Position numbers and translations under genes: made by a program
Assembly (NCBI GenBank): GCA_023484515.1
Contig: JAMDAY010000007.1
Span: 50,179-114,178 of the forward strand
Direction: 5' to 3'
DNA length: 64,000 nt
From: Patescibacteria group bacterium
GTDB lineage: Bacteria > Patescibacteriota > Doudnabacteria > UBA920
Notes under the pieces: model-generated
What the model was told of the DNA's origin: nothing
Seen by the model: the letters and a program-made list of their open reading frames with translations, nothing else
Databases searched by the model: none
In this document: positions 2,587 to 61,968 of the stretch, piece by piece
Layout of the letters: each line of letters opens with the position of its first letter
Numbering within the stretch: position 1 is the stretch's first letter

Positions 2587-4110
2587 TTAGAATCCATGGA
2601 GGATTTCTATTTTTGCACCCAATTTTTTCAAACGATTGGCCAAATCTTCATAACCGCGGTTAATGGAATAGACGTTACGCAAAATTGACGTGCCTTTGGC
2701 GGCCAGCATGGCAATTAAAATAATGGCGGCCGGCCGCAAGGCCGGCGGGCAGATAATTTCCGCGCCGCGCAACTCAGTGGGGCCTTCAATATACACGCGG
2801 TGGGGATCGGCTAAAATTATATTAGTGCGCAGCTTGTTAAGCTCCATGTAATAAATAGCGCGGTTTTCATAAACCCAGTCATGAACAAGCGTGGTTCCGC
2901 TTGCCTGGGTGGCAATAGGCACAAAAAACGGCAAATTGTCTATGTTTAAGCCGGGAAACGGCCGGGCGTAAATTTTTTCCTCCAAGGCCATAAGCTTGCC
3001 CGGAAACGTCTTAATGTCCGCCAAATTAGTAAAGCCATTCCTGCTTTTATAACGTTTTAAAATCTTAAACTTAAAGCCCATTTTTTCCAGTTTCAGCAGC
3101 TCCAATTCCAAAAAATCCAGAGGACAGCGCTGTATGGTAATGGAAGAATTGGTAGTCGCGGCCAAAGACAAGAACATCATGGACTCTATGGGGTCTTCGC
3201 TTAAATAATAAGTTACCGGCTGGCATAAATCGGCCTTGCCGTGGACAGTCAAAGTGGTAGTGCCAATTCCTTCTATCTTCACTCCTAAAACCTGCAGAAA
3301 ATAGCACAAATCCTGCACCATATAATTGGACGAAGCAAACTTAATGACTGTTTTGCCGGGAATTTTACTGGCTGCCATAATTGCATTTTCCGTAACAGTA
3401 TCCCCGGATTCGTATAAAATAATTTCCGCGGGTTTTAAACGCGCTGCCACCACCTGATAACTGCCATGTTCGGTTTTTATGCTAATCCCAAGTTTTTCAA
3501 GGGCAAACAAGTGCGGCCGCACTGTCCTGGCGCCCAATTTGCAGCCGCCGGCCAAAGGCAATTTAAAATTTTTAGACAGATGGACCAGGGGTCCGAGCAG
3601 CATTAGCACGCTCCTGGTTTTAGCGGCGGCTTCCGCATCAATGTTCCCCAAATCTAAAGCTTGCGGAGGAACAACTTCCACGTCGTTGCCGCTCCATTTC
3701 ACTCCCGCCCCAATGCTGGACAAGACTTCCATAATGCGGAAAACTTCCTCAATTTTAGGCACATTCTTCAGCGTGGTTTTGCCCTTATTCAGCAAGCTCG
3801 CACACAGCAGGGCTACCGCTGCGTTTTTGGAAGTGTTGGTGGCTATAGTTCCAGACAGCTTATGGCCGCCCTCTATTTTAAAATTGACCGACTTGTCGGC
3901 CAAAGTAATTATTTCCTGGTTTAACGCCGCGCTGACCTTGGCCAAAGTTTCCGTAGTCAGGTTCTGCTGGCCTTTTTCCATCCTGGCTACCGCGCTTTGG
4001 GAAGTCTTTAAGGCCTTGGCAAATTCTTCCTGGGTCAAACCTTTTAATTCCCTTAATTCCGCAATAAATTTTCCTATTTTTAACTGCTCCCGGTTAATTA
4101 GTGTCTTCAT
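2587..4110 (-). CDS. murA: UDP-N-acetylglucosamine 1-carboxyvinyltransferase (MurA) with an N-terminal XRE-type HTH domain
   Basis: Residues 1-70 are a classic XRE HTH (LTQEEFAKALKTSQSAVARMEKGQ). The rest is an EPSP-synthase-fold MurA (KLSGTIATNTSKNAAVALLCASLL ...). Confidence 0.8.
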   Translation of the reverse strand: MKTLINREQLKIGKFIAELRELKGLTQEEFAKALKTSQSAVARMEKGQQNLTTETLAKVSAALNQEIITLADKSVNFKIEGGHKLSGTIATNTSKNAAVALLCASLLNKGKTTLKNVPKIEEVFRIMEVLSSIGAGVKWSGNDVEVVPPQALDLGNIDAEAAAKTRSVLMLLGPLVHLSKNFKLPLAGGCKLGARTVRPHLFALEKLGISIKTEHGSYQVVAARLKPAEIILYESGDTVTENAIMAASKIPGKTVIKFASSNYMVQDLCYFLQVLGVKIEGIGTTTLTVHGKADLCQPVTYYLSEDPIESMMFLSLAATTNSSITIQRCPLDFLELELLKLEKMGFKFKILKRYKSRNGFTNLADIKTFPGKLMALEEKIYARPFPGLNIDNLPFFVPIATQASGTTLVHDWVYENRAIYYMELNKLRTNIILADPHRVYIEGPTELRGAEIICPPALRPAAIILIAMLAAKGTSILRNVYSINRGYEDLANRLKKLGAKIEILHGF

Positions 4111-4202
4111 AAAAATATCATATATGATATATTTATTTCCATAATATCCTTCTATGCCCTTTTTGTCAATTGCTGATAATAATATTATATCATTTATGAA
4201 AT

Positions 4203-4228
4203 AAACCCCGCAGGAAGATGCGGGGTTT
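4203..4228. terminator. rho-independent terminator hairpin AAACCCCGCA-GGAAGA-TGCGGGGTTT
   Basis: Perfect 10-bp stem with flanking T/A runs between murA and the small minus-strand ORF. Confidence 0.6.
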
Positions 4229-4245
4229 AAACAAAGCCTGAAAGG

Positions 4246-4455
4246 CTAAATGTGGAATATTTTTCCGAACAGGTTTTCCAAATAATGGGATTTGTTATTG
4301 GAATAGAACACGGCAAGAACGGCTGCCAAATATACTAAGTTTAAAATTACCACCCTAAGCAGGTCATGCCTGATAATCCGGTATTCGCCCTCGTGGGTTA
4401 AAGACGCCGAAACCGGACCGCCCTGGATATTCGTTTTTTTATGCTTTTTGCTCAT
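4246..4455 (-). CDS. small hypothetical membrane protein (69 aa)
   Basis: ORF-track ORF with one hydrophobic helix and a terminator immediately downstream; weak RBS. Confidence 0.3.
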   Translation of the reverse strand: MSKKHKKTNIQGGPVSASLTHEGEYRIIRHDLLRVVILNLVYLAAVLAVFYSNNKSHYLENLFGKIFHI

Positions 4456-4570
4456 AATAAAAACCTTAAATTTTTATTCTTATGCTATCTTGGTTAAGTA
4501 TAATATTACTCAAATTTCCAGTCAAATTTTTCAGCGAAACAACCATTAAAAATTTTCAGGTTTTTATAAT

Positions 4571-4600
4571 TTGAAATTATCCTGCCAATAATGCTACAAT
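4571..4600 (+). promoter_or_regulatory. sigma70-like promoter TTGAAA-18-TACAAT; the mRNA would be nearly leaderless
   Basis: The -10 ends 9 nt before the ATG at 4610. Confidence 0.4.
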
Positions 4601-4609
4601 ATTTGGGAT

Positions 4610-5095
4610 ATGACATATTCCCAGCTAATTTTACCGGCCCTGATAATAGGACTACTGGCCCTCCTGGCTTCCCTGTATGCCTCCTGGCAAATAATGTCCT
4701 TTAACCGCCTCAGGCGCGACTTATTTACAGGCAGTAACGGGCTGGACCTGGAAAAAACCCTGCGCATTTTGGCACAGGAGCTTAACGGCCTGCGGGAAGA
4801 GCAGGTGTTTTTAGAACAAAGCCTGGAACAATTAAAAAGCGATTCCCGTTTTACCTTGCAGAAAATCGGCTTGGTAAGATTTAATCCTTTTGCCGACGGG
4901 GGAGGCAATTTCAGTTTTTCCCTGGCCTTGCTGGACGGCAATAACAGCGGAGTAGTGCTAACTTCCATGCACGGCAGGCAACAAAACCGCATTTACACGA
5001 AAAAAATTCAGGCGGGAAAGAGCGAAATGGCCTTAACCGAGGAGGAACAACAGGCCATTAGCCTGGCAAACGCAAAACAAAAGCCCGTTTCGTAA
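4610..5095 (+). CDS. DUF4446-family protein
   Basis: N-terminal TM helix plus FNPFADGGGNFSFSLALLD segment characteristic of DUF4446. Confidence 0.55.
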   Translation: MTYSQLILPALIIGLLALLASLYASWQIMSFNRLRRDLFTGSNGLDLEKTLRILAQELNGLREEQVFLEQSLEQLKSDSRFTLQKIGLVRFNPFADGGGNFSFSLALLDGNNSGVVLTSMHGRQQNRIYTKKIQAGKSEMALTEEEQQAISLANAKQKPVS

Positions 5096-5119
5096 TTAAC
5101 CTAAGAAAGGAAAACGACA

Positions 5120-5536
5120 ATGGAAAAGGATTTAGACGAAAACTTAAGCGCCCAAGCGGAAACCGTAGTCGGCCCTTCCGTTAAAATCCAGGGGGATTTG
5201 AATTCCGAAGGGAATATCAGGATAGAAGGCCAAGTAGCCGGAAAAGTTACGACCAGCCAAAGCGTATTCGTAAACCAGGGGGCGCATATAGCCGCGGATA
5301 TTTTGGCGGGCAATGCCATAGTGGGAGGGGAAGTACAGGGCAATTTAAAAATTTCCGGACATTTGATTCTGCAGTCCACCGCTAAAATTAGCGGAGACAT
5401 TTCCTGCGCCATTTTGCGCGTGGAAGACGGTGCCCAGTTCACCGGCAAATGTGCCATGAACAGCAACGGCAATTCCGCCCACGGCAAAAAAGAAGCCTAT
5501 AACAGGGAAAAAGAACCTGCTTTAGAAACGGAATAG
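5120..5536 (+). CDS. bactofilin (polymer-forming cytoskeletal protein)
   Basis: Repetitive beta-helical bactofilin/DUF583 pattern (IxGxVxGxV repeats) with Pro/Glu-rich tails; AAAGGA RBS. Confidence 0.7.
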   Translation: MEKDLDENLSAQAETVVGPSVKIQGDLNSEGNIRIEGQVAGKVTTSQSVFVNQGAHIAADILAGNAIVGGEVQGNLKISGHLILQSTAKISGDISCAILRVEDGAQFTGKCAMNSNGNSAHGKKEAYNREKEPALETE

Positions 5537-5598
5537 CTTTTACGGATTTAATTACTGCTGCCAAAAACCCTGGAGAACGGCATTAACCCGTAAAGCTG

Positions 5599-6441
5599 AT
5601 GTATTATTATATTGTTGACCAAAACCACCTCCCATTGGAAAAATTTGAACGCCTGCAAACCCAGCTGCAAGGGTTGCTGGCGGAATTTAAAATTGCCGGG
5701 GAGGTCGCCCGCGTCACCCCGCTGCGGAACATTACGGACCTGGTTAACACGGCCAGCCAACGGGGAGCTAAAACCCTGGTAGCTTGCGGCAGCGATGACA
5801 CCTTTAACCAGATGCTGGCTGCGCTAAAAGGGCGCGACTTTACGGCCGGCTTTATCCCGTTTGACGAAAATTCCATTTTGGCAAAAATCCTGGGCACGGA
5901 AAACCTGTTTACGGGCGTAAAAACCATTGCGGCCAGAAGGATAGAAAAAATTGACCTGGCCAAAATTTCCGGCAATTACTTTATCAGCTTTCTGGAATTC
6001 GGGGTCATGAGCCAGAACATAAAAGATGCGACCCTGTGGCAAAGCTTAAAACTGCTGTCCAGCGAATCCAAGTCGTTTACCATTAGGATTGACGACTCCT
6101 ATAACGTTACCATAAACGGCCAGGGTGGGCTGGTGGCCAACATCCGTTCCAGTTCCGCGCACAACGAGCGCATTGCCAATCCCACCGACGGTAATTTGGA
6201 CCTGCTCATTCTGGAAAAACTTTCCAAAATGCAGATTCTGGCGCATCGCAAAGCCATTGGCGAAGGCTGCCTGGAAAAAGTCCCGAACACTACGGTAATC
6301 AAGTGCAAAAAAATTGAATTTTTGGAGCCACGGGGCTTTAGCCTGACCATGCTCGGCCGCGTGGTGGCCAAGTTCCCGGCCACCGTTGAAATTATACCGC
6401 AAAGGCTGCGCATGATCGTGGGCAAAAGCCGCACATTTTGA
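5599..6441 (+). CDS. diacylglycerol/lipid kinase catalytic domain (YegS/DAGK_cat-like) protein
   Basis: LVACGSDDTFNQML resembles the GGDGT motif of the DAGK_cat family. Confidence 0.5.
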   Translation: MYYYIVDQNHLPLEKFERLQTQLQGLLAEFKIAGEVARVTPLRNITDLVNTASQRGAKTLVACGSDDTFNQMLAALKGRDFTAGFIPFDENSILAKILGTENLFTGVKTIAARRIEKIDLAKISGNYFISFLEFGVMSQNIKDATLWQSLKLLSSESKSFTIRIDDSYNVTINGQGGLVANIRSSSAHNERIANPTDGNLDLLILEKLSKMQILAHRKAIGEGCLEKVPNTTVIKCKKIEFLEPRGFSLTMLGRVVAKFPATVEIIPQRLRMIVGKSRTF

Positions 6442-14138: not shown

Positions 14139-14774
14139 TTACTGTCGTTCTTTCCGGCCCTCCCTTAATTTCTTCATTCCTTCCGCCGCAAAAACCAGGC
14201 TGGCAATAAACCCGCCTATTTTTTTGTTATATGATTCGTCTATTAACAGTCCTTCCGCGTTAAAAGCTTTCTGCACCGGCCCGAACATTACGGTTTCGCG
14301 GATGGCAAACATGGAAAAATTCGCCATTAAGGGCCGTAATTGTTCCATGGCTCTGGCTCCCCCGGTTATCCCGGATGAGACACCGGCAAATCCTACCGCT
14401 TTATACTCGAATTCCTTATATAACCAATCCAGCGCGTTCTTGAGCACTGCCGGATACCCGTGGTTATATTCCGGCGTAACGATTACGAACGCATCCGCAG
14501 CCTCGGCAATTGTGCTCCACTTTTGGACATTGGCGTCAGGATACTTTTTATTTAAGGACGCCGGCGGAGGGTCGCAAAACATAAACGGCAAAGTCAGTTC
14601 CTTAAAATCCACCAATACGGATTCATGCCCGCTATCCAATAGTATTTTATTAATTAGCCGCGCCGGAAAAATACTTTTCCGGCTGTCGCGCACGCTCCCT
14701 AAAATGACAGGAATGTTCAATTTCATAAATATAAATTTATAATAGTAGACGATCAATTTTGCAAAATCAAACAC
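14139..14774 (-). CDS. NAD(P)H-dependent FMN reductase family oxidoreductase
   Basis: MKLNIPVILGSVRDSRKS...VIVTPEYNHGYPAVLKNALDW pattern of the FMN_red family. Confidence 0.7.
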   Translation of the reverse strand: MFDFAKLIVYYYKFIFMKLNIPVILGSVRDSRKSIFPARLINKILLDSGHESVLVDFKELTLPFMFCDPPPASLNKKYPDANVQKWSTIAEAADAFVIVTPEYNHGYPAVLKNALDWLYKEFEYKAVGFAGVSSGITGGARAMEQLRPLMANFSMFAIRETVMFGPVQKAFNAEGLLIDESYNKKIGGFIASLVFAAEGMKKLREGRKERQ

Positions 14775-15420
14775 CTGTTTGAACCGGAAAAATTTGTCTG
14801 AAAGACTTTAAGCGGGATTTTCCCATGCGCGGCAAACTCATTAATTCAATATCCGAAGCCTGCGCCAGGTTATCTATTGTCTTAAAAACTGTTAAGAGAT
14901 CGCTGGCTGTTTGCCTGCCAATTCCCGAAATTTGCGTGAGGATATTTATTTGCCGCTGCCAAGGAGTAATTATTTTCCGCTGCTGGCGGCATTGTTGCAG
15001 GTTTGCTGCCGCATTGGCGGAATATTTTTTCGCCAGCAAGCGCAATATGCTGGAAGAATCTTCTTCGTTGCAAGTCCTGACTAAAGAAACTTTTTTAGTA
15101 ACCGTGATCCAAAGGATTACCCCGCGGATAACATCGGACGACACGCGCCCTTGATGGTATAAGCCCCCGCCTTCCAGTAACAGCAAAGGATGCTTGCAGC
15201 TTCTTGCCAGCCAGGCCACTTGCCGAAACAAGCGGCCGTCGGCAATGGAAGTAATAAAGTCGCTAATGGTTTTGCGTTCAACAAAACAATCGGAACCAAT
15301 AACGTAGTCCGTAGCCAGGCTGCCAAACTGGACGGAAAACCCCAAATGGGACAAAAATTTCGGCACCAAGCACCTCTGCTCGCGGAAATCCGCCAAAATT
15401 GAATTTTTGTTTATATGCAT
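14767..15420 (-). CDS. ERCC4-type (XPF/Mus81/Hef-like) nuclease domain protein with C-terminal HhH
   Basis: ERKTISDFITSIADGRLFRQ matches the ERK...D...GR ERCC4 signature. Start set at MHINKNS (15420), which has a GGAGGG RBS. Confidence 0.6.
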   Translation of the reverse strand: MHINKNSILADFREQRCLVPKFLSHLGFSVQFGSLATDYVIGSDCFVERKTISDFITSIADGRLFRQVAWLARSCKHPLLLLEGGGLYHQGRVSSDVIRGVILWITVTKKVSLVRTCNEEDSSSILRLLAKKYSANAAANLQQCRQQRKIITPWQRQINILTQISGIGRQTASDLLTVFKTIDNLAQASDIELMSLPRMGKSRLKSFRQIFPVQTGV

Positions 15421-15438
15421 AAACCCTCCGGATTTAAC

Positions 15439-15600
15439 GGGTCTGTTGCCGAATGCCATTTTGGCTGCAATTTTAGAATTTCGGCATCTTGGCCAAAAAA
15501 TTTTTTCCCCTTAGCCTACGGCTAAACATCAAAAATTATTTTAGCCAATCTGCTCGGAATTCTGAAATTTCGCCTTAAAAGCGCATTCGGCAGCAGACCC
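15439..15600. mobile_element. 162-bp MITE-like element, copy 1 (terminal inverted repeats GGGTCTGTTGCCGAATGC / GCATTCGGCAGCAGACCC)
   Basis: Near-identical second copy at 61969-62130; internal TTAGCC-TAC-GGCTAA hairpin; TTAAC/TTAAT-like flanks. Confidence 0.7.
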
Positions 15601-17090: not shown

Positions 17091-17117
17091 AGGGACAGGT
17101 CTAGACCTGTCCCTACG
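17091..17117 (-). terminator. REP-like perfect palindrome AGGGACAGGTC-TAGA-CCTGTCCCT acting as the pyrB terminator
   Basis: Sibling palindrome at 47612-47641. Confidence 0.55.
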
Positions 17118-18168: not shown

Positions 18169-21100
18169 TTACTTGTTATTTATAAATTCCCTCCTGTATT
18201 CCTGCCAGGAGACTATTCCTAAATTATCCGGCTGGTTTCTTCCCAGGGCTTTAACGAACGCGCGGGCCAAATGTAGGTCAATAAACAGCGGAATCTGGTT
18301 ATCTACGGCGGCGCGCCTTATGCGGAAACCGTCATTTAAATGCCGCTTGAGCTTGTCCTGTTCCTGCCTGCCTTCATTCTGGCTCAAATTTACCACAAAA
18401 GCAATATCCTTTCCCTCAATCGCGTTTAAGACGTTAGGCTGCTGCTCGGAAACCTTCCGCACAACAGTGCAGGCCACATTCTGTTCCCGCAGATACGAAG
18501 CAGTGGTATCGGTCGCGAGAATCTCATACCCCAAGAACACTAAAGTTTGTGCGGCTTCCAAAAATTTTATCTTGTTCAGTTCACCGCCCAAAGAAAGCAG
18601 CACGCGTTTTTTGGTAAAGTCAAAACTATTGGCGGACATTATGGACTTAAGCAAAGCCTCGTCGTAAGTGCGGCCAAAACAGGCTACCTCGCCGGTAGAG
18701 GACATTTCCACCTGCAAAACCGGATCCGCTCCTGAGAGGCGGGCAAAGGAAAACTGGGGCGATTTGACTACGACCGCGGGCGGATATTCATAATTGAATT
18801 TTTTTGCCTTGCCAAAAAAACTGTCCACGGCAATGGCCGGAAAATTGGTAAACAAGGCCTTGGACAGCAAGGGAAAGGTGCGGCTGGCGCGCACATTCAC
18901 TTCTATAACAAACGGCTGGTTGTCCTTGAATAAAAATTGGATGTTGAACGGCCCGGTAATTTTCAGCTCCTTGCTGATTTTTTTCGCAATCTGGCGAAGC
19001 TGGTATTCGGTGGAAGCGTATACGCGCTGCGTCGGATAAACAATGGTCGCGTCTCCGGAATGCACGCCCGCGTTTTCCACATGCTCGGCAATGGCATAAA
19101 CCATTAACTCTCCGTTTTGGGCGACTGCGTCAAATTCCAGCTCTTTGGCGTTTTCAATAAATTTGGATACTGTTACCGGATGCCGCTGGTTTAAGTCCGC
19201 GGCTTTGCCAATGAAATCCTTTAACTGCTGGGGATTGCGGCAAACGCTCATGGCGCTGCCCGATAAAACATAAGAAGGCCGCACCAGGACCGGGTAACCA
19301 ACTTCTTCGGCAAACTGTTCCGCCTTTTCCAGGCTGGCAAAGCTCTGCCAGCGGGGCTGCAAAATGCCCAGTTTGTCCAGGAGCGCGGAAAACTTATTGC
19401 GGTCTTCGGCACGGTCAATGTTTTCCGCGCTGGTCCCTAAAATGGGAGCTTTATAAGCCGCCAGCGCATTGGCCAGGTTGTTGGGCCGCTGCCCTCCTAC
19501 CGACACCGCCACTCCGCCCGATTGCTCAAAATCTAAAATGTCTGCCACGGTTTCAAAATTCAAATCTTCAAAATACAGCCGGTCGGACATGTCGTAGTCA
19601 GTGGACACGGTTTCGGGGTTGCAGTTGATAATTATGGTTTTTTTGTCATATTTTTTTAAAGCCAAAGCCGTATTCACACATGACCAGTCAAACTCCACCG
19701 AAGATCCGATATGATAAGGCCCGCTGCCCAAGACCATGACGGATTTTTTGCCCAAAGGCTGGACATCGTGATGGTTGCCATGATAAGTCAGATACAAATA
19801 ATTGGTCTGGGCCGGCACTTCTCCCGCCAAGGTGTCAATTTGGAACACGCTCGGCAATACGCCGGCTTTTTGGCGCAGGGCGCGAATTTCCAATTCGGTT
19901 TTTCCCGTCAAAAATGCAATTCTTTTGTCCGAAAGTCCGGCTTGCTTATAGCGGCACAGGCTTTGAGGATCCAGCATTTGTGACGCCTTCAGATTTTCTT
20001 CCGTGTCCACAATATTTTTTATCCGGTACAAAAACCACAAATCAATTCCCGTTGCCTGATAGATATCCTTTACTTTTGCGCCATTTTTTAAACTTTCAGC
20101 CAGGGCAAACAAACGTTTGGGCGTCGGTATTTTTAAAAATTTTTCGGAAAATTCTTTTTTTGATAAATTTTTAATGTTAAACCCGTTTTCCGTAACGCCT
20201 TGGACGCGGCCGCTTAACATGCGGCTGGCTTTTTGTAAAGCTTCTTCAAAACTTCTGCCTATGGCCATAACTTCGCCCACGGACTTCATGGCGCTGCCGA
20301 TTTTTTCTTCCGCTCCGGAAAACTTTTCCAAATCCCAGCGCGGCATTTTAACCACCACGTAATCAAGCGCCGGCTCAAAAAAACTTTGCGTAACTTTGGT
20401 CACTTGGTTTTGCACTTTGTTTAAAGTCTTACCCAAAGCCAGCTTTGCCGCAACATAAGCCAAAGGATAGCCGGTGGCCTTGGAAGCCAAAGCCGAGGAG
20501 CGCGACAAACGCGCGTTGACCTCGATTACATAATAATCTAAACCTTGCTTGCCTGTATGTCCATGCATCCGTGTTGATCCGTCATCTTTGATCTGTGTAG
20601 ATCCGTTTGGGTTTAACGCAAATTGGACATTGCATTCGCCAACAATTCCCAAGGATTTGACGATATTTACAGACACCTCGCGCAAACCATGGTATTCGTC
20701 GCTGGTCAAGGTCTGGCTGGGCGCCACCACAATGGAATCGCCGGTGTGGATGCCCAAAGGATCCATGTTTTCCATGTTGCAGACCGTGACGCAGTTGCCT
20801 TCTTTGTCGCGCACAACTTCGTATTCAATTTCCTTAAAATGATGCAAATATTTTTCCACCAGCACCTGCGGCGACACGGCCAAGGCGCCGCTGACTATCT
20901 CATTTAATTGCTTAAGATTATAAGCCACCCCGCTCTTTTGCCCGCCCAAAGCGTAAGCCGCGCGCACCATAACCGGAAAGCCAATTTGCTTGGCTATGGC
21001 TTGCGCCTGTACCAGAGTAGCAGCCGCTCCGCTCGGCGGAACTGCCACATTAATCTTCCGGAGATGGTCCGCAAAATTTTTCCGATCCTCCGTCAAAACA

Positions 21101-21459
21101 ACAGCTTCTATGGGCGTGCCCAAAACTTTAACCTTATGCTTCTTTAAAATGCCTTTACGGTGCAATTCCAACCCGCAATTTAGCGCGGTTTGCCCGCCAA
21201 AAGACAACAATATCCCGTCCGGCTTTTCCTTGGCAATAACCTTTTCCACAAAATAGGGCGTCACCGGCAAAAAATAAATTTCGTCAGCCAAAAGGGGAGA
21301 AGTTTGGATAGTGGCAATGTTGGGATTGACCAAAACCGTCTTTATCCCTTCTTCCTTTAACGCCTTCATGGCCTGGCTGCCCGAATAATCAAACTCCCCG
21401 GCCTCGCCAATTTTTAATGCCCCGCTTCCTAAGACTAATACTTTCTTAAGTGTTTTCAT
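18169..21459 (-). CDS. carB: carbamoyl-phosphate synthase large subunit
   Basis: 1096 aa with duplicated ATP-grasp halves and MGS-like C-terminus; N-terminus VLVLGSGALKIGEAGEFDYSGSQA. Confidence 0.95.
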   Translation of the reverse strand: MKTLKKVLVLGSGALKIGEAGEFDYSGSQAMKALKEEGIKTVLVNPNIATIQTSPLLADEIYFLPVTPYFVEKVIAKEKPDGILLSFGGQTALNCGLELHRKGILKKHKVKVLGTPIEAVVLTEDRKNFADHLRKINVAVPPSGAAATLVQAQAIAKQIGFPVMVRAAYALGGQKSGVAYNLKQLNEIVSGALAVSPQVLVEKYLHHFKEIEYEVVRDKEGNCVTVCNMENMDPLGIHTGDSIVVAPSQTLTSDEYHGLREVSVNIVKSLGIVGECNVQFALNPNGSTQIKDDGSTRMHGHTGKQGLDYYVIEVNARLSRSSALASKATGYPLAYVAAKLALGKTLNKVQNQVTKVTQSFFEPALDYVVVKMPRWDLEKFSGAEEKIGSAMKSVGEVMAIGRSFEEALQKASRMLSGRVQGVTENGFNIKNLSKKEFSEKFLKIPTPKRLFALAESLKNGAKVKDIYQATGIDLWFLYRIKNIVDTEENLKASQMLDPQSLCRYKQAGLSDKRIAFLTGKTELEIRALRQKAGVLPSVFQIDTLAGEVPAQTNYLYLTYHGNHHDVQPLGKKSVMVLGSGPYHIGSSVEFDWSCVNTALALKKYDKKTIIINCNPETVSTDYDMSDRLYFEDLNFETVADILDFEQSGGVAVSVGGQRPNNLANALAAYKAPILGTSAENIDRAEDRNKFSALLDKLGILQPRWQSFASLEKAEQFAEEVGYPVLVRPSYVLSGSAMSVCRNPQQLKDFIGKAADLNQRHPVTVSKFIENAKELEFDAVAQNGELMVYAIAEHVENAGVHSGDATIVYPTQRVYASTEYQLRQIAKKISKELKITGPFNIQFLFKDNQPFVIEVNVRASRTFPLLSKALFTNFPAIAVDSFFGKAKKFNYEYPPAVVVKSPQFSFARLSGADPVLQVEMSSTGEVACFGRTYDEALLKSIMSANSFDFTKKRVLLSLGGELNKIKFLEAAQTLVFLGYEILATDTTASYLREQNVACTVVRKVSEQQPNVLNAIEGKDIAFVVNLSQNEGRQEQDKLKRHLNDGFRIRRAAVDNQIPLFIDLHLARAFVKALGRNQPDNLGIVSWQEYRREFINNK

Positions 21460-21526
21460 AATAATGCTCTTTACAAAACTTTTTTTGCTTGCTATTCTAT
21501 GATATCCAATTGAAAGGAGTGGACAT

Positions 21527-21751
21527 ATGGGTCAGGTGATGAATACAGGCTCTCGTCTCTTTGGAAAGGTTAAGGTGGAGATTGAGGGTATAGGATCGCA
21601 AGTCCTGGACAACGTCCAGGGTTCAACGGTCGTGGGCTGTATCAATGTAGTCGGAGCGGCTTTGAGTGGGGGACCGTTTCAGGTTACTCCGGAGGAATGG
21701 GACGTTGGTTATCGCGCTTCCGACAATTTCATCCTGGTGCGGCGCAAGTGA
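21527..21751 (+). CDS. small hypothetical protein (74 aa), apparently inserted between carB and carA
   Basis: Strong AAAGGAGTGG RBS, own terminator; composition differs from neighbours. Confidence 0.5.
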   Translation: MGQVMNTGSRLFGKVKVEIEGIGSQVLDNVQGSTVVGCINVVGAALSGGPFQVTPEEWDVGYRASDNFILVRRK

Positions 21752-21767
21752 CCCGGCTTTCATTCGT

Positions 21768-21810
21768 GAGGCAGCTTGCCGGTAATACCGGAGGCTGCCC
21801 TCTTTTTTTA
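21768..21810 (+). terminator. terminator GAGGCAGC...GGCTGCCCTC + T8
   Basis: Read directly after the small gene. Confidence 0.6.
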
Positions 21811-21818
21811 TGTGTATT

Positions 21819-21902
21819 TGTAGTTAGCTGATTTATCACGGTCGTTCGCGAACGACGTGATTTATCAGCTGTTATTAACAGCCCATAAATGGGCTAACTA
21901 CA
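21819..21902. mobile_element. 'TGTAGTTAGC...GCTAACTACA' palindromic element, copy A, carrying a nested 19-nt palindromic insert flanked by a TGATTTATCA duplication
   Basis: Aligned by eye to the copies at 60129-60184 and 24204-24261. Confidence 0.65.
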
Positions 21903-21935
21903 TCTTAAATCTTAAATCCTAAATCTTAAATCTTT
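21903..21935. repeat. heptamer tandem repeat (CTTAAAT)x5 abutting the carA stop codon
   Basis: Read directly; a related TTTAGGATTTAAGATTT motif occurs at the pyrE 3' end (25484-25505). Confidence 0.6.
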
Positions 21936-23101
21936 TTAAGGAACTCATCAAACAGCCACCCGGTATCCAACGGCCCCGGATGCGCTTCGGGATGGAATTG
22001 AACGGACATAAACGGCAGTTTGTTATGGATAATGCCTTCGTTGGTCTTGTCGTTGGCGTTGTAAAACCACTGTTTAAAGCCTTTGGGAATTTTTTTAATG
22101 GCGAAACCGTGGTTCTGGGTGGTTAAATAGCATTTGTTCGTGCCCTGCAAAACACACGGCTGGTTCTGGCCGCGATGCCCATACTTTAGCTTATAAGTAT
22201 CACCATCGGCTGCTAAAGCTAGAATTTGATTGCCTAAACAAATACCAAATGTCGGGATCTTTTTGGCCAGTAGATATTTTACGTTTTCTATGGTGGTGGT
22301 TGCCTGCTTGGGGTCGCCCGGGCCGTTGGAAATTAAGGCAGCGTCAAATTTCAGTTTTTTCAAATTGTAATCCCAAGGCACTACCACGACTTTTACGTTG
22401 CGCTTGACCAATTCGCGCACAATGTTTTGCTTAAGGCCGCAGTCAATAACCACAACCGTCTTTTTGCCCGAACCCGCGCGGTAAACTTTTTTCGTGGAAA
22501 CTTTGGCGGCTAAATTTTCAAGGTTGGGGTCTTTGAATTCTGTCATTGCCAGGCCGCCTTGCCCGCCGAAGCCTTGGCGGAGGAGGGGGTTTTGTCCGGC
22601 CGACCGAAGATACGCCGAAGCCTTGGCGAAGGTGGACGAAGCAATCTTCTCCTGTGATAGATTGCTTCGCTCGGATGCACTCGCTCGCAATGACACATTA
22701 TTAAATTCCATTTTCCCCAACATGACTCCATGGGTCCGCAGCTTTTGCGTAATTTCCCTGGTATCCTTAATCTCCAAAGCAGGAATGTTTTGCTTTTTCA
22801 GCCAGTCTGACAATGTCTGTTTGCTTGAATGATGCGAAGGCGTATCTATATAGCTTGATACCACTAACCCCGAAACTTGAATTTTACCAGATTCCCAATA
22901 TTTTTTCTCCGGCACGCCATAATTGCCCTGCAGGGGATAGGTTAAAACCAAAATCTGCCCGGCATAAGAGGGATCGGTCAAGCTTTCCGGATACCCGACC
23001 ATGCCCGTGGCAAATACCACTTCGCCCGCCATGGGCTTTTCTTTGCCAAAACTTTTACCAACGTATTCGCTGCCGTCTTTTAAAATAAGGTTGCCGATCA
23101 T
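21926..23101 (-). CDS. carA: carbamoyl-phosphate synthase small subunit; the linker carries an in-frame palindromic-element insertion
   Basis: CarA N-domain plus class-I GATase (GICLGNQ, HPE) with about 45 extra low-complexity residues in the linker, encoded by the 22541-22695 element. Confidence 0.9.
   Translation of the reverse strand: MIGNLILKDGSEYVGKSFGKEKPMAGEVVFATGMVGYPESLTDPSYAGQILVLTYPLQGNYGVPEKKYWESGKIQVSGLVVSSYIDTPSHHSSKQTLSDWLKKQNIPALEIKDTREITQKLRTHGVMLGKMEFNNVSLRASASERSNLSQEKIASSTFAKASAYLRSAGQNPLLRQGFGGQGGLAMTEFKDPNLENLAAKVSTKKVYRAGSGKKTVVVIDCGLKQNIVRELVKRNVKVVVVPWDYNLKKLKFDAALISNGPGDPKQATTTIENVKYLLAKKIPTFGICLGNQILALAADGDTYKLKYGHRGQNQPCVLQGTNKCYLTTQNHGFAIKKIPKGFKQWFYNANDKTNEGIIHNKLPFMSVQFHPEAHPGPLDTGWLFDEFLKKI
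22541..22695. mobile_element. 'TGTCATTGC...GCAATGACA' palindromic element inserted in-frame in carA
   Basis: Terminal inverted repeats, internal CGAAGCAATC...GATTGCTTCG hairpin and GCCGAAGCCTTGGCG direct repeats; homologous copy in rsmI. Confidence 0.7.
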
Positions 23102-23365: not shown

Positions 23366-24655
23366 CTAATTCGTATTGTTATATACTCTGCCTCTTACAA
23401 TAGCACACTTTACTTTTCCTGGGAAGACCCTGCCGGTAAAGGGCGACCAGCCGCATTTGGTTTTTAAATTCTCCTTTTTTACAAGCCATTTTTGCGATAA
23501 ATCCAAAATTGTCAGCGACCCCGCAAAGCCCTCCTTTATTTCCCCACACCGTTCCGTGCGAAAGCTGTTTACAAAACGGCCCGGATTAAAACTGCAAATC
23601 CTGGCAATGTCTTGCGGCTCAAAATTACATTCCTTAAGCAGCCACGCGGCAAAAGCCCCGTAAGTATCCAAGTGAGGGACTCCTGACATGCCTTTTAATT
23701 TTTCTTCTGCGGTATGCGGGGCATGGTCAGTTGCCAAAAAATCTATGTCGCCTTTTCTTAAGGCCTCAATCATGGCCAAACGGTCTTCCGGTGCCCTAAG
23801 TGGCGGGTTCATTTGCAGCCACTTGCGGTTTTCTTCTGTCAGCATCGTGTCGTCAAAATACAAATGGTGAGGCGCAACTTCGCAAGCCACGTCTAAGCCT
23901 GCTTTTTTGGCACTGATAATTTTAGCCAGGCCTTCCTTAACGGAATAATGGCATAGTTTCCCGTGCAAGCGGTATTTTTCAATAAGATACAAAGCAAAAT
24001 CCGTGGCCTTAAGTTCGGCCTCGGCCGGGCGGCGCTGTTCGTGAGTCGGCTGGTTTTTGTTGGCTTCCAAAATTTCCGGATCTTCGCAATGGAAACTTAC
24101 ATATTGGCCTTCATATCGTTTAATCGCTTCTTCCAATTCCTGCTGCGAATGGAAAAACAAATCGCCGATTGACGGGCCCATAAAGGCTTTGTAAGGCGGT
24201 TGTGTTGTAATGTGCCCATTTATGGGCTGCATTGATGGCCGATAAATCGGCGCACTACAACTAAATGGCTTCGTCTTCGGTCCAATCCCCCCATACAGCG
24301 TTACGTCCACCAACGCTTTTTCGGCAAGCGCCAATTTTTCCCCGTAAGATTTTTCGTCCACCGGCGCCACGGGGTTATTGGGCATATCGCAAATATGCGT
24401 TACCCCGCCGTTTATGGCCGCCTCGGACGCGCTTAAAAAGTCTTCTTTGTAATTTTGCAAGCCCGAGACATCTTCCCGCGCATGCACGTGCAAATCTACA
24501 AACCCGGGAAATACCAGACAATCTTCGCCGCATACAATATCGGCGCTGCCCGTAGCCTCGCCAACACTTTTGATCAATCCCGTCTCCTGATTAATCTCCA
24601 CGCGCCCGTAAATTTCGCTGTCGTGGTTTATTATTTTGCCTTCAATTGATAACAT
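23366..24655 (-). CDS. pyrC: dihydroorotase
   Basis: DLHVHAR metal-binding motif and FHCED, DHAPH motifs (HxH, FHCE); 429 aa. Confidence 0.9.
   Translation of the reverse strand: MLSIEGKIINHDSEIYGRVEINQETGLIKSVGEATGSADIVCGEDCLVFPGFVDLHVHAREDVSGLQNYKEDFLSASEAAINGGVTHICDMPNNPVAPVDEKSYGEKLALAEKALVDVTLYGGIGPKTKPFSCSAPIYRPSMQPINGHITTQPPYKAFMGPSIGDLFFHSQQELEEAIKRYEGQYVSFHCEDPEILEANKNQPTHEQRRPAEAELKATDFALYLIEKYRLHGKLCHYSVKEGLAKIISAKKAGLDVACEVAPHHLYFDDTMLTEENRKWLQMNPPLRAPEDRLAMIEALRKGDIDFLATDHAPHTAEEKLKGMSGVPHLDTYGAFAAWLLKECNFEPQDIARICSFNPGRFVNSFRTERCGEIKEGFAGSLTILDLSQKWLVKKENLKTKCGWSPFTGRVFPGKVKCAIVRGRVYNNTN
24204..24261. mobile_element. divergent 'GTTGTAGTG...CACTACAAC' palindromic element lying in-frame inside pyrC
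   Basis: Same order of TIR / GATTTATC hairpin / GCCCATAAATGGGC hairpin as the 60129-60184 copy; encodes FSCSAPIYRPSMQPINGHI. Confidence 0.5.
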
Positions 24656-32867: not shown

Positions 32868-33140
32868 CATTGACTTTTAGTCTAGATTGTTCCCGTTTTT
32901 ATGGAAGTTTAGCAAAAATACACCTTGCCGCCTTAGCAAATAAATTATAGTCTTACTTCACATAAAGCTTCCTGCTTCGCCAAGACTTCGCCGAACAAGC
33001 CTTAAGGCACTTCTTCGCGATAATAAGCAGCATCAGCAATTTAAACAATACCCGACTTCTAAGCCGCGCTTGCACTTCCTGCTTCACGTAAAGCTTCGCA
33101 GGACGAGTCATAGCTCCGACGTTAAGTCGGAGCGAAGAAG

Positions 33141-33653: not shown

Positions 33654-35039
33654 GTGACCACCAAAACCGCATCCAAAAAAAAGAACGGCTTCCGCAAATT
33701 CTGGCGCTTGGGCATTGAAGAATACAATACCCAAAACTTTGACATTGGCCCGGACGGGGAACTGATAGTCCGCGAAGGCAACTACCAGTACAATATTTTT
33801 GACATTGTAAAAAAATACGGGACTTCCACGGAGATTGTTTTTCCCACGGTCATTGAAAACCGCGTGCGGGACCTGATTGAAACCTTTAACGCTTACATAA
33901 AAGTACTGGGCTACCGGGGCAAGTTCCACTACCATTACGCCATGAAAGTCAACCAGAACAAGGAATTCGTGCTGCCGGCCGTGGCCGAAGGGGCAAATTT
34001 GGACGTGGCCAGCGCCAACGAATTATTCTTGGTCAAACGGATGATAGAACAGGACAAGTTTAACAACAAAATCCGCGTCATTTGCAACGGGCCCAAGACT
34101 GAAAAATATATTGGCCTGATAGAAGAGCTTAAGAGCAAGGGCCTGATTGTCGTTCCCATTATTGAAGACCATGTAGAGCTGGAGCGCTTGAAAAAATTCA
34201 AGGGCGAGGTGGGGGTGCGCGTAAATTTGGACGTAAAAGTCAACAGCCATTGGGACAAAAAATTCAACCGTTACGGGTTCACCGAGGCCGAACTGCTGCG
34301 GCTGGGCAAAATTAAGAACCTGTCCACGTTGCATTACCATATTTCCAGCCAGATTGAACGGATGGAAGGCATGCTTAAGCCGCTCAAGCGGGCGCTGGAG
34401 CTTTACGCCAAGCTGCGGGAAAAGAATCCCGGCCTGGACACCTTGGACATGGGCGGGGGAGCGGGCGTGCCTTACGAAAAACGCAAGCATTTTTATTCCG
34501 CGAAAAATTTAATCCATCACCTGGTTAAGACTGCCAAAAATACCTGCGACCGGCTGCAGGTTAGGCATCCCAACTTGATAGTGGAATGGGGCAGGTACGT
34601 GGCCGCGCCGGCGCAAATTACCATCTACAAAATACTGGCGGAAAAAACCGTGGAAAACAAAGGTAATAACAAGTGGTATGTAATTGACGGCAGCTTTATG
34701 AACGATTTGATTGACACCTGGGCCATACACCAAAAGTGGCACGTGGTGCCGGTTAATTACATGAACACGCGCAAGCTGGAAAAGGTCTGGCTGGCAGGCG
34801 CCTCCTGCGACAGCGACGACAAATATACTTCCGGCGGCGGTTACATTTTGTTGCCCAGGCTAAGCGAGACCGACGAGCTGTATGTCGCCTTTTTGGACAC
34901 CGGCGCTTACCAGGATTCCCTGGCCTCGCACCACTGCCTGCTGTCCAGCCCGGCCAAACTTATAGCCCAAAACGGGGAAATAAAAATTGCCCGCCGCCGC
35001 GAAGTCCCGGAAGAGGTGGGAAAACTTTTTGGCTGGTAA
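33654..35039 (+). CDS. speA: arginine decarboxylase-like PLP-dependent (Orn/DAP/Arg decarboxylase fold III) enzyme
   Basis: HYHYAMKVN (PLP lysine region) and C-terminal beta-sandwich; 461 aa. Confidence 0.7.
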   Translation: MTTKTASKKKNGFRKFWRLGIEEYNTQNFDIGPDGELIVREGNYQYNIFDIVKKYGTSTEIVFPTVIENRVRDLIETFNAYIKVLGYRGKFHYHYAMKVNQNKEFVLPAVAEGANLDVASANELFLVKRMIEQDKFNNKIRVICNGPKTEKYIGLIEELKSKGLIVVPIIEDHVELERLKKFKGEVGVRVNLDVKVNSHWDKKFNRYGFTEAELLRLGKIKNLSTLHYHISSQIERMEGMLKPLKRALELYAKLREKNPGLDTLDMGGGAGVPYEKRKHFYSAKNLIHHLVKTAKNTCDRLQVRHPNLIVEWGRYVAAPAQITIYKILAEKTVENKGNNKWYVIDGSFMNDLIDTWAIHQKWHVVPVNYMNTRKLEKVWLAGASCDSDDKYTSGGGYILLPRLSETDELYVAFLDTGAYQDSLASHHCLLSSPAKLIAQNGEIKIARRREVPEEVGKLFGW

Positions 35040-35743
35040 TTAACAATCTCTTAATATCATATGCGCAAAGGCTGTCTTTAACCCGGCAACGCCACCATGG
35101 GCGGGGGAGCGGGCGTGCCTTACGAAAAACGCAAGCATTTTTATTCCGCGAAAAATTTAATCCATCACCTGGTTAAGACTGCCAAAAATACCTGCGACCG
35201 GCTGCAGGTTAGGCATCCCAACTTGATAGTGGAATGGGGCAGGTACGTGGCCGCGCCGGCGCAAATTACCATCTACAAAATACTGGCGGAAAAAACCGTG
35301 GAAAACAAAGGTAATAACAAGTGGTATGTAATTGACGGCAGCTTTATGAACGATTTGATTGACACCTGGGCCATACACCAAAAGTGGCACGTGGTGCCGG
35401 TTAATTACATGAACACGCGCAAGCTGGAAAAGGTCTGGCTGGCAGGCGCCTCCTGCGACAGCGACGACAAATATACTTCCGGCGGCGGTTACATTTTGTT
35501 GCCCAGGCTAAGCGAGACCGACGAGCTGTATGTCGCCTTTTTGGACACCGGCGCTTACCAGGATTCCCTGGCCTCGCACCACTGCCTGCTGTCCAGCCCG
35601 GCCAAACTTATAGCCCAAAACGGGGAAATAAAAATTGCCCGCCGCCGCGAAGTCCCGGAAGAGGTGGGAAAACTTTTTGGCTGGTAATTAACAATCTCTT
35701 AATATCATATGCGCAAAGGCTGTCTTTAACCCGGCAACGCCAC
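34448..35743 (+). repeat. perfect tandem direct duplication, 2 x 648 bp (34448-35095 and 35096-35743), covering the speA 3' third plus the 3' UTR up to the terminator loop
   Basis: ORF-track proteins 33654..35039 (C-terminal 196 aa) and 35097..35687 are identical; the DNA is identical by eye, including the 56-nt UTR. Confidence 0.85.
35097..35687 (+). pseudogene. duplicated 3' fragment of speA (promoterless 196-aa C-terminal copy)
   Basis: Second repeat unit; starts at the internal Met of speA. Confidence 0.6.
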
Positions 35744-47576: not shown

Positions 47577-47611
47577 GTTGCAATATGATTAATGATGCCT
47601 TAAACTGTAGG

Positions 47612-47641
47612 GACAGGCCGCGGCCTGTCCCTACATTATAT
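47612..47641. repeat. REP-like perfect palindrome GTAGGGACAGGCC-GC-GGCCTGTCCCTAC (sibling of 17091-17117)
   Basis: Read directly, just upstream of the folC start. Confidence 0.6.
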
Positions 47642-50715: not shown

Positions 50716-51492
50716 ATGCTTTACGTTGTCGCCACGCCCATTGGGAACTTAAAAGATATAACTTTGCGGGCCATTGAGACTTTAAAGGCCTGCGATTTTG
50801 TAATTGCGGAAAATCCGGGGTATAGCAGGAGGCTGTTGCAACACATCGCAAACACCAGTGTCATTGCGAGGCCGAATGCATCTGAGGCCGAAGCAATCTA
50901 TCCATCTGACAGTAAGATTGCTTCGCCGTCCGGCCAAAGCCCCGAACGGCTCGCAATGACATCTAAGAAAGAGATTGTCCAATTTGCGGAATTTAACGAA
51001 CAGCAGGTGGTCAAAGAATTGGCTAGACGATTAATAAAAGAAAACGGATGCCTTATCACCGACGCCGGCACGCCTGGCATTTCCGACCCCGGATTCAGGC
51101 TGGTGAGGGAATGTATAAAAAACAACATCGAGATTGTGCCAATCCCCGGCGCCAGCGCCGCAATTACCGCCTTGTCAGCAAGCGGTTTGCCCACGGACAG
51201 GTTTTTATTCCTGGGCTTTTTGCAAAAGACCGCGGCCAAAACCTTGAAAGCCTTAAAAGACGCCGAACAAGCTGAAGCCACGGCCATATTTTACGAATCC
51301 CCGGAAAGAATTTTCAAGACCATGAGTTACATTGCCAACGCCTTCCCGTCTTCCCAAGTCGTTATCGCGCGCGAACTAACCAAACTCCACGAAGAATTCA
51401 TCCGCGGCAGCGCGGGGGAAGTGCTGGAAAAGCTGAAAGAAAGAACCTCAATAAAAGGAGAATTTACAGTCCTTGTATCATTTAAAAATTAA
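50716..51492 (+). CDS. rsmI: 16S rRNA (cytidine1402-2'-O)-methyltransferase RsmI carrying an in-frame palindromic-element insertion
   Basis: MLYVVATPIGNLKDITLRAIETL N-terminus and DAGTPGISDPGFRLV motif; about 37 extra residues between LLQH and NEQQ encoded by the 50859-50961 element. Confidence 0.8.
   Translation: MLYVVATPIGNLKDITLRAIETLKACDFVIAENPGYSRRLLQHIANTSVIARPNASEAEAIYPSDSKIASPSGQSPERLAMTSKKEIVQFAEFNEQQVVKELARRLIKENGCLITDAGTPGISDPGFRLVRECIKNNIEIVPIPGASAAITALSASGLPTDRFLFLGFLQKTAAKTLKALKDAEQAEATAIFYESPERIFKTMSYIANAFPSSQVVIARELTKLHEEFIRGSAGEVLEKLKERTSIKGEFTVLVSFKN
50859..50961. mobile_element. 'TGTCATTGC...GCAATGACA' palindromic element inserted in-frame in rsmI
   Basis: Shares TIRs, the CGAAGCAATC/GATTGCTTCG inner hairpin and GTCCGGCC with the carA copy; same orientation relative to the host reading frame. 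Confidence 0.7.
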
Positions 51493-51515: not shown

Positions 51516-51884
51516 ATGAAACCGGAGGATTTGCAAAAAAGGACCAAAAAATTTGCAATTAGGGTAATTAAATTCGCTCAATTTCTTGAAACGAAAGGAA
51601 TTGTTGGGGTAGTAATCGCAAAACAATTATTACGCGCAGCTACCTCGGTTGCGGCGAATTATCGAGCAGTTTGCCGAGCCAAATCTGGAAAAGATTTTGT
51701 TAATAAATTAGGGATAGTTGTTGAAGAGGCTGACGAAACGCAATTTTGGCTGGAATTAGCGGTAGAGTCAGGATTGGTGGAAACGAGTATGATTCAAGAC
51801 CTGCTTAAAGAAGCTACGGAGGTTACAGCCATCATGCAGGCATCAAAGTCGTCGGCTATTCGCAATCACGTAGGGAAAAAATAA
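51516..51884 (+). CDS. four-helix-bundle protein (TIGR02436 / 23S rRNA-IVS protein family)
   Basis: KDFVNKLGIVVEEADETQFWLEL signature. Confidence 0.6.
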   Translation: MKPEDLQKRTKKFAIRVIKFAQFLETKGIVGVVIAKQLLRAATSVAANYRAVCRAKSGKDFVNKLGIVVEEADETQFWLELAVESGLVETSMIQDLLKEATEVTAIMQASKSSAIRNHVGKK

Positions 51885-59927: not shown

Positions 59928-60128
59928 TCCTCCTTCTCCTTTCGCGTATCCCCGCCGGGTGTTTTTGTTTTAACGGAGAAGAATAGCAAAAAATAGATAT
60001 ATTGACAATTGAATTCCACTTATAATATAATATATTTAGCCTTAAGTAAGGCTTTTTTATTTCTTTTGATTAGATTTGTCAGAATAGGTTGACACTTGTT
60101 CGCTGACAAATCGACACGCTACAATAGT

Positions 60129-60184
60129 TGTAGTTAGCCCATTTATGGGCTGTCCTTTAACAGCTGATAAATCAGCTAACTACA
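60129..60184. mobile_element. 'TGTAGTTAGC...GCTAACTACA' palindromic element, canonical 56-bp copy B
   Basis: TIRs plus two perfect sub-hairpins (GCCCATTTATGGGC and AGCTGATAAATCAGCT). Confidence 0.7.
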
Positions 60185-60293
60185 ATTACTGCACCCTCTC
60201 TGTCACCCGAAGGGTGACATCTCCCCTAAGGGGGAGGGTTCCGCAGTTTCCGCGATCCGTGTTCATCCGTAATCTATCCGTATTAATCATCCA

Positions 60294-61967: not shown

Positions 61968-61968
61968 T

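Follow-up and report, generated by a model that had tools for sequence, protein, structure and literature searches.

The stretch of DNA analyzed here, referred to throughout as the window, comprises 64,000 nucleotides of a metagenome-assembled genome (MAG) of a Patescibacteria group bacterium, a member of the candidate phyla radiation (CPR; assembly GCA_023484515.1, contig JAMDAY010000007.1, positions 50,179 to 114,178). Two housekeeping genes in the window, carA, which encodes the small subunit of carbamoyl phosphate synthetase (CPS), and rsmI, each carry a palindromic DNA element within an unbroken reading frame. A preliminary description of the window had portrayed the two elements as members of a selfish palindromic family and had likened them to the palindromic elements of Rickettsia. 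Here, both elements are identified as head-to-head dimers of short repetitive extragenic palindromic (REP) units that bear the terminal tag TGTC.

Anatomy of the elements in carA and rsmI

The open reading frames (ORFs) of the two host genes and the parts of the two elements are as follows.

21926-23101, minus strand: carA ORF, first host gene, 391 aa (taken from the ORF list; matches CPS small subunits in the PDB)
22541-22695, minus strand: carA element, a TGTC-tagged REP head-to-head dimer coding for residues ~136-187 (VSLRA...LAMT)
22658-22695, minus strand: carA unit 1, intact, located by structural pattern search: TGTC-ATTGC-GAG-CGAGTGCATCCGAG-CGAA-GCAAT-CTA
22648-22657, minus strand: inter-unit spacer of the carA element, forming the loop of the inner hairpin
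22541-22648, plus strand: carA unit 2, inverted and interrupted: TGTCATTGC... (22541-22558) and ...GGTGGACGAAGCAATCTT (22631-22648)
22559-22630, strand not assigned: nested module of ~72 nt within carA unit 2, with two direct CGCCGAAGCCTTGGCG repeats, coding for ..FAKASAYLRSAGQNPLLRQGFGGQ..
50716-51492, plus strand: rsmI ORF, second host gene, 258 aa
50859-50961, plus strand: rsmI element, a TGTC-tagged REP head-to-head dimer coding for VIARPNASEAEAIYPSDSKIASPSGQSPERLAMT
50859-50900, plus strand: rsmI unit 1: TGTC-ATTGC-GAG-GCCGAATGCATCTGAGGC-CGAA-GCAAT-CTA
50901-50913, plus strand: spacer between the two rsmI units
50914-50961, minus strand: rsmI unit 2, inverted, with its own apical hairpin: TGTC-ATTGC-GAG-CCGTTCGGGGCTTTGGCCGGACGG-CGAA-GCAAT-CTT

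The CarA protein of the window is identical to P0001, a Patescibacteria MAG protein at NCBI. The 155-bp palindromic segment with 9-bp inverted-repeat ends that had been reported in carA is present as described; its termini read TGTCATTGCGAG and CTCGCAATGACA, and the terminal inverted repeat extends over 12 nt with 92% complementarity. The inner hairpin and the two direct repeats named in the preliminary description were likewise recovered, the former as a perfect 11-bp stem (CGAAGCAATCT/AGATTGCTTCG) and the latter as 23 nt around CGCCGAAGCCTTGGCG that occur twice with 91% identity, 49 nt apart (22564-22586 and 22613-22635). Unit 2 of the carA element is split by the nested module, which belongs to a different repeat. 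At 0 mismatches, the CGCCGAAGCCTTGGCG motif of this module was found in the window at the carA site only, and the module sequence GCCAAGGCTTCGGCGGGCAAG gave one chance-like match in viral contigs and, at 2 mismatches, a relative located between genes of the window. Repeats related to the module (CTTCCTGCTTCGCCAAGACTTCGCCGAACAAG..) lie at 32960-33120, between genes and near tRNA genes, and the peptide LRQGFVGQAG in the CarA insert of another homolog, P0012, resembles the peptide encoded by the module.

The carA frame passes through 22541-22695 without a stop codon, as had been claimed, and the insert adds 50 residues to CarA (391 aa versus 341 aa in the closest relative, P0002), slightly more than the roughly 45 first estimated. 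The rsmI insert amounts to about 36 aa, and its frame is also free of stop codons. Tryptic peptides predicted from the inserts include SNLSQEK, IASSTFAK, SAGQNPLLR, and QGFGGQGGLAMTEFK.

Across the 64-kb window, the nonamer GCAATGACA is found, directly or as its complement, at four places, exclusively the four termini of the carA and rsmI elements, compared to an expectation of 0.42 in shuffled sequence, and none of 100 shuffles reached four occurrences. A structural pattern of the repeat unit, GTC-S5-GA-N(3-45)-GAA-rc(S5), was found three times in the window versus 0.04 times in shuffles. When the two elements were aligned with each other, all of the conserved blocks corresponded, and the earlier assignment of 50859-50961 as a homologous, in-frame element in rsmI is thereby upheld. 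The proposed hairpin folding was also borne out, as both elements fold better as single-stranded DNA than dinucleotide shuffles of themselves (z = -3.4 for carA, z = -6.2 for rsmI). Two further claims held in part. The best alignment does give both copies one orientation with respect to their genes (score 88.5, versus 61 for the opposite orientation), but this is weak evidence, because the element is a near-palindromic dimer; and the shared peptides are confined to the 3' halves, which have a common frame (KIAS..LAMT), whereas the 5' halves are read in different frames (VSLRA.. in carA, VIARP.. in rsmI). In carA as in rsmI, the element consists of two short REP units joined head to head rather than being a transposable element of the classical miniature inverted-repeat type (MITE).

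Empty sites and host loops

Empty sites were found in close relatives for both insertions. The closest CarA homolog, P0002 (341 aa), is encoded in a syntenic pyr operon (L133/L134) and has an empty carA site (..ATGGAGTTCGGCAAGCCGACTGATTTCGTCGACCCAAAC..), and the syntenic locus L219 has an empty rsmI site. In two other syntenic loci, L218 and L220, the same rsmI insertion is present and its arms have decayed. Among the window, L218, and L220, identity within the rsmI insert (68-82%) is comparable to that of the flanking sequence (71-78%); the rsmI copy is therefore old and vertically inherited. To judge by the empty site of its nearest relative, the carA copy was acquired after the L133 lineage had split off, and in a tree computed with the insert masked, P0001 falls among CarA sequences with empty sites.

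CarA residues ~135-186 have no counterpart in the solved structure of human CPS1, and RsmI residues ~46-90 stand opposite 8 residues of the solved E. coli RsmI. In AlphaFold models, CarA residues 137-183 and RsmI residues 51-80 have a predicted local distance difference test score (pLDDT) below 50 and no secondary structure. The CarA model has a mean pLDDT of 84, with most 10-residue blocks outside the insert above 90; the RsmI model is only moderate overall (mean pLDDT 73, predicted template modeling score 0.53). These data place the CarA insert in the predicted linker between the N-domain and the glutaminase domain, and the RsmI insert in a predicted surface loop. Altogether, the syntenic empty sites and the absence of the segments from solved homologs agree with the original proposal that the extra residues are lineage-specific insertions at loops.

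The 120 best homologs of CarA and the 120 best of RsmI were then surveyed; wherever the source names the organism, it is a CPR bacterium, and the shares of insert-bearing proteins are inflated by ranking with a query that contains the insert. The CarA linker has a basal length of 9-11 residues in 66 homologs and at least 18 residues in 45; the RsmI loop is basal in 48 and extended in 69. Every difference in loop length, in CarA as in RsmI, falls at the same site. The inserts at these loops are of several types: the window family (..SLR..KQS..KIASS..LLAMT), a CGTC-tagged family with the stem ATCCT (L131), a VIPAKAGI type, a PSPQGRG..PPRGG type, and direct repeats of a TRN/TDI type. In the CarA tree with the insert masked, the insert types are interleaved with empty sites. 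Both halves of carA are in one frame at all 90 loci among the matches listed, most of which are non-CPR carA genes, so that few are informative.

The repeat unit elsewhere and possible explanations

The basic unit reads (T)GTC - ATTGC - GA - [apical hairpin] - GAA - GCAAT - C(T/C)(C/A) and is about 29-45 nt long or longer. A search of IMG/VR with the pattern TGTCATTGCGAG-N(0-30)-CGAAGCAATC gave at least 168 matches in at least 120 contigs, which, together with copies on plasmids, substantiates the earlier claim of a multi-copy palindromic family. Head-to-head dimers were seen in both window copies and at L135, L136, L218, L220, and L222, yet 141 of the 168 IMG/VR matches listed have no exact inverted partner within 260 nt and are apparently single units; therefore, the basic unit is a short single hairpin. 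At L135 and L136, two further carA loci, the elements aligned better with the window copy in the opposite orientation (74.5) than in the same orientation (64), but as near-homodimers they were not relied on. Plasmid sequences of Calothrix, Methylocystis, Methylosinus trichosporium OB3b (32 nt identical), and Halomonas match the consensus dimer, and the repeat family therefore crosses phyla.

The basal stem ATTGC/GCAAT is present in all four window units and, among the IMG/VR loci listed, in 190 of 229 pattern matches; L135 has a compensated basal stem, ATCGC/GCGAT. In 197 units from these listed loci, the tail is most often CTC (104 units), followed by CCC (36) and CCA (18), with CTA and CTT in the window, and the apical part is represented by 121 different sequences. 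Hairpins that start directly after GA and end directly before GAA are formed by the 86 distinct apical segments that are long, with dozens of different complementary stems (mean z -1.7; z < -1.5 in 40 of 86). About one third of the units in the listed loci lie within long ORFs. In four IMG/VR loci (L073, L037, L105, and L107), long phage ORFs, including terminase-like and portal-like ones, contain ..DCFASLAMT.., VIASPSPS.., ..SRNDR.., or NVIASEARQS, and in-frame copies are therefore found in viral genes as well. Relative to flanking ORFs, 29 single units were sense and 41 antisense; co-orientation with the genes of phage contigs had been considered as support for a role in RNA, and this idea was dropped.

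With Rfam 15, only tRNAs reached the gathering score in the window, and 22400-22850 gave only chance-level matches at E up to 10. Literature searches on the DNA and peptide motifs returned primer coincidences only, and a search combining CPR bacteria with palindromic elements returned nothing relevant. Clustering of the ORFs of 120 IMG/VR loci showed phage structural proteins as the only common genes, with no IS-like gene, that is, none resembling those of insertion sequences (IS), and no mobilizing enzyme.

Considering all of these data, the best explanation, to which we assign a probability of roughly 0.8, is that the elements are TGTC-tagged REP dimers that are non-autonomous, have spread, and are kept in frame in permissive loops. 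Such repeats would spread within and between genomes by being moved in trans, and by analogy with REPs tagged GTAG, the mobilizing activity supplied in trans may be of the HUH/Y1 type that uses single-stranded DNA. Intragenic copies would survive only where the protein tolerates the extra residues and the frame stays open, and the homolog survey, with inserts of several families at the same loops, supports such a filter of selection. On translation, the insert would give a disordered loop, about 50 aa long in CarA and 36 aa long in RsmI; it would then drift at about the rate of the host gene and would be open to further repeats, the nested module in carA being an example. In a compact, deletion-biased genome, loss is probably more difficult for an intragenic copy than for one between genes, since deletions would have to be in frame, and no benefit to the host would be needed.

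It should be noted that several observations weigh against this explanation. Neither element has a length that is a multiple of three (155 nt in carA, 103 nt in rsmI), and only in combination with minor changes in the element flanks does the frame stay intact; moreover, no target-site duplication or clean boundary was found at the carA and rsmI copies, including by comparison with the empty sites. As a result of these lengths and of the lack of duplications and boundaries, the original insertion events are blurred. The arms of the elements at L135 and L136 are identical at 63 of 64 positions in carA genes that are 72% identical, and this is not predicted by plain neutral drift. A comparison of 20 window ORFs with Pfam revealed no transposase domain and no Y1_Tnp. 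Translation of the inserts is presumed from the open frame only, the shares in the homolog survey are inflated as stated above, and the architecture of the unit departs from that of published CGTC-tagged REPs, as set out below.

One alternative, which we consider unlikely, is that the hairpins are kept as nucleic-acid signals, either as a ribosome-pausing or mRNA-decay hairpin or as a DNA site for gyrase or a structure-specific protein, with the peptide as a by-product. The near-identical arms of L135 and L136 would fit such a role, as would the many compensatory variants in apical stems and the stable folding of both window copies, and a comparative study of REPs argues that many of them act as RNA elements (Di Nocera, De Gregorio and Rocco 2013, PMC3733652). 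However, the rsmI copies decay like their flanks, with arms broken in L218 and L220; the elements are sporadically present among close relatives; unrelated repeat families, some of them non-palindromic, occupy the same loops; the single IMG/VR units show no orientation bias (29 sense, 41 antisense); and Rfam gave no match for the window elements.

It is quite improbable that the elements are classical MITEs, i.e., deletion derivatives of an IS that are cut and pasted by a DDE transposase via terminal inverted repeats. Although they are small, have 12-nt terminal inverted repeats and no ORF of their own, and have many copies elsewhere, neither copy has a target-site duplication, the apparent terminal repeats are the tag-plus-stem of two REP units, and no IS-like gene is common to the loci that carry copies. 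Furthermore, the 141 apparently single units of ~35 nt among the 168 IMG/VR matches listed are without a second terminus, unlike an element that depends on terminal inverted repeats.

There is very little chance that the segment is an intervening sequence absent from the protein, such as a small intron, an element of the intein type, or a site of translational bypass: a strong hairpin in a coding region does resemble bypass or processing signals, but the frame is open in every insert examined and the carA halves are always in one frame (90 listed loci), a length of 103-155 nt falls short of group I or II introns, intein motifs are absent from the peptide, no Rfam family was matched, and the residues that flank the insert are ancestral, with no take-off/landing pair. 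A low-complexity linker that is ancestral or evolved independently, palindromic by chance and not mobile DNA, is scarcely credible: linker length does vary in many non-CPR CarA proteins, but the same DNA termini and inner stems are found in two unrelated genes of the window, the same DNA occurs in hundreds of unrelated places, and the closest relatives have empty sites.

A broader proposition, which we regard as doubtful, is that a few permissive loops of essential CPR proteins (the CarA linker and the RsmI, PyrC, CarB, and Wzy loops) are long-lived refuges that are repeatedly recolonized by several REP superfamilies, with some hairpins held constant at the nucleotide level, as the near-identical arms in the diverged carA genes of L135 and L136 would suggest. 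If true, the intragenic hairpin would have a role of its own, e.g., as a translation pause at a domain boundary or as a site of recombination or gene conversion, and REP-coded peptides would be a regular source of new protein segments in reduced genomes.

If, as we favor, the elements are non-autonomous REP dimers retained in permissive loops, then behavior like that of the Rickettsia palindromic elements (RPEs), long held to be peculiar to Rickettsia, also occurs in CPR bacteria and involves the same superfamily of tagged REPs. The extra 30-50 residues of CPR CarA, RsmI, PyrC, CarB, and Wzy-like proteins would be repeat-derived, so that masking them is advisable when proteins are aligned, phylogenies built, or structures predicted, and strings such as ..KIAS..LAMT, VIPAKAGI, and GRG..PPRGG in metagenomic proteins would be flags of translated repeats, not domains. 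The different repeat families found at each loop across lineages could be used to estimate rates of REP gain and loss and to map permissive sites of essential enzymes.

Other repeats of the window and comparison with known systems

The window also contains GTAG-tagged REP dimers (GTAGTT-stem-TTTAT-stem) with compensatory changes in the stems, two of them in frame within genes and two intergenic. These dimers and the remaining repeats are as follows.

24206-24259, minus strand: GTAG REP head-to-head dimer (TGTAGTGCGCCGATTTATCGGC...GCCCATAAATGGGCACATTACA), in frame in the pyrC (dihydroorotase) ORF, 23366-24655
58430-58481, plus strand: GTAG REP dimer (TGTAGTTGCCCGATTTATCGGGCT..AGCTCCATAAATGGAGCAACTACA) in a wzy-like ORF, 57792-59141, with the in-frame product VVARFIGLPSSINGATT
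21819-21902: intergenic GTAG REP dimer with a nested hairpin, in the carA-carB spacer
60113-60200: intergenic GTAG dimer of the GTAGTTAGC..TTTAT.. family
47601-47640 and 17093-17116: GTAG-tagged palindromes, two copies of GTAGGGACAGG(C/T)C..GACCTGTCCCTAC
20542-20604, minus strand: insert of 16-20 residues (..GSTQIKDDGSTRMHGHTGKQG..) in the carB ORF, 18169-21459, made of three ACGGAT(C/G) repeats
15439-15600 and 61962-62137: a further palindromic element (GGGTCTGTTGCCGAATGC.ATTTT ... AAAAGCGCATTCGGCAGCAGACCC) in two copies, with the arms separated by 114 nt, apparently intergenic

The GTAG dimer in pyrC adds IYRPSMQPINGHITTQPP, which is absent from the syntenic L133/L134, and the loop of the wzy-like protein is occupied in the relative L219 by a different, repeat-like insert of 38 residues. 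Neither human CPS1 nor the CarB of L133/L134 (1074 aa, versus 1096 aa here) has the carB insert. The carA-carB spacer (21460-21925) measures 466 bp, versus ~100 bp in L133, and has an apparent small ORF on the plus strand. Over 18169-23101, CarA and CarB score much higher against human mitochondrial CPS1 than against the E. coli proteins (305 versus 204 bits for CarA, 1058 versus 809 bits for CarB).

A gene for a 23S_rRNA_IVP protein (PF05635, E = 3e-16) lies at 51516-51884 on the plus strand between rsmI and yebC, and there is none at this place in L218, L219, L220, or L222. A split gyrA in L220 (two ORFs, 3249-5717) was considered as a possible out-of-frame insertion and was rejected, as the sequence suggests frameshifts due to assembly error. 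One copy of the GGGTCTGTTGCCGAATGC palindromic element adjoins an ERCC4-family nuclease gene (14767-15459). At 33654-35687, an Orn/DAP/Arg decarboxylase gene is followed by an ORF that repeats only its C-terminal domain, and a partial duplication in tandem is suggested by DNA repeats at 34832-34999 and 35480-35647.

GTAG REPs are moved by a REP-associated tyrosine transposase (RAYT), which acts on single-stranded hairpins. The TGTC dimers of carA and rsmI share with GTAG REPs and their inverted doublets (REPINs) a short imperfect hairpin, an unpaired tetranucleotide tag, an inverted doublet as the likely mobile unit, and a proposed route through single-stranded DNA; dimers of the GTAG type are also present in the window, two of them in frame in genes. 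Unlike GTAG REPs, the elements in carA and rsmI have the tag TGTC, and no RAYT gene was found among the 20 window ORFs scanned.

MITEs that fuse with ORFs (ERIC/RU elements, Correia elements, and QMITE1 of Coxiella; PMC10969869, PMC5896051, PMC2759123) are similar in being small and non-autonomous, in having inverted termini, and in occasionally extending or interrupting an ORF in frame. The elements in carA and rsmI differ in that there is no target-site duplication, the basic unit is a hairpin of ~35 nt that also occurs alone, and no parent IS is known.

The closest relationship is with the CGTC-tagged REPs, for which four families, CGTC-1 to CGTC-4, have been described (PMC3733652). According to that description, the CGTC tag is often TGTC, with CCTC also allowed; the stem starts with a complementary AT, comprises 8-9 bp, and is closed by a loop of 4-5 nt; and an unpaired 3-nt tail has the consensus CCA. 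Head-to-head dimers with the tags outside predominate, intragenic copies occur in several species, and the account of these families names no known dedicated transposase (PMC3733652). The elements in carA and rsmI share with these REPs the terminal tag, the stem that starts with AT, and the in-frame intragenic units. They also have a tail of 3 nt, which reads CTA or CTT, and are head-to-head dimers, although most of the IMG/VR matches listed are apparently single units; no transposase domain was found in the 20 window ORFs scanned. Both window elements have TGTC at both outer ends, the sister element at L131 has a CGTC tag, and at the rsmI loop of L222, a syntenic CPR locus, there is a classical CGTC-type heterodimer (ATTCCCGC-GAAA-GCGGGAAT-CCA and ATCCCCGA-CCTGA-TCGGGGAT-CCA).

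The encoded peptides correspond as well. Additional file 3 of the same paper lists VIPAKAGI, SFPRKRES, WIPAFAGMT, DSRFRGND, and CHSRESGNP for CGTC-1 (PMC3733652), and the peptides of the window family (VIA(S/R).., SLRA.., ..SLAMT, ..ARND, and CHCE..) are frame-by-frame parallels of these, with VIAS.., ..SLAMT, and ..FARND here standing for VIPAKAGI, ..AFAGMT, and ..RFRGND. Published CGTC REPs have a plain stem of 8-9 bp closed by 4-5 nt, whereas the present unit runs from a stem of only 5 bp through an internal GA/GAA loop into a variable hairpin at the apex; in the listed IMG/VR units most tails read CTC, compared to the published CCA; and the hosts are a Patescibacteria MAG and uncultured viral contigs, which lie outside the coverage reported in 2013. 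Because the 5-bp stem, the internal loop, and the free apical stem differ from the published architecture, the window elements are filed as what appears to be a further family or a variant within the CGTC/TGTC-tagged REP superfamily, set apart from CGTC-1 to CGTC-4 as these are described.

RPEs are reportedly the subject of work by Ogata et al. in 2000 and later. They are palindromes of ~100-150 bp that reside in frame in housekeeping genes unrelated to one another, where the protein fold can accommodate them (PMC10969869, PMC3733652), and in this respect the likeness put forward in the preliminary description proved sound, as the elements in carA and rsmI likewise lie in frame within two unrelated housekeeping genes and leave the fold intact. 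The analogy is in fact closer than first proposed: RPE-6 and RPE-4 of R. conorii are classified as CGTC-1 and CGTC-4, respectively (PMC3733652), and the present elements fit, by description, the superfamily to which these two belong. RPE-1, the classic in-frame family, differs in being a longer, unrelated palindrome; the present host is without a known link to Rickettsiales, and the same loop has here been used recurrently by several repeat families, across many lineages. RPE-like insertion of tagged REPs in frame was already known, and what is added here is a CPR host and the reuse of the same loops by different repeat families.

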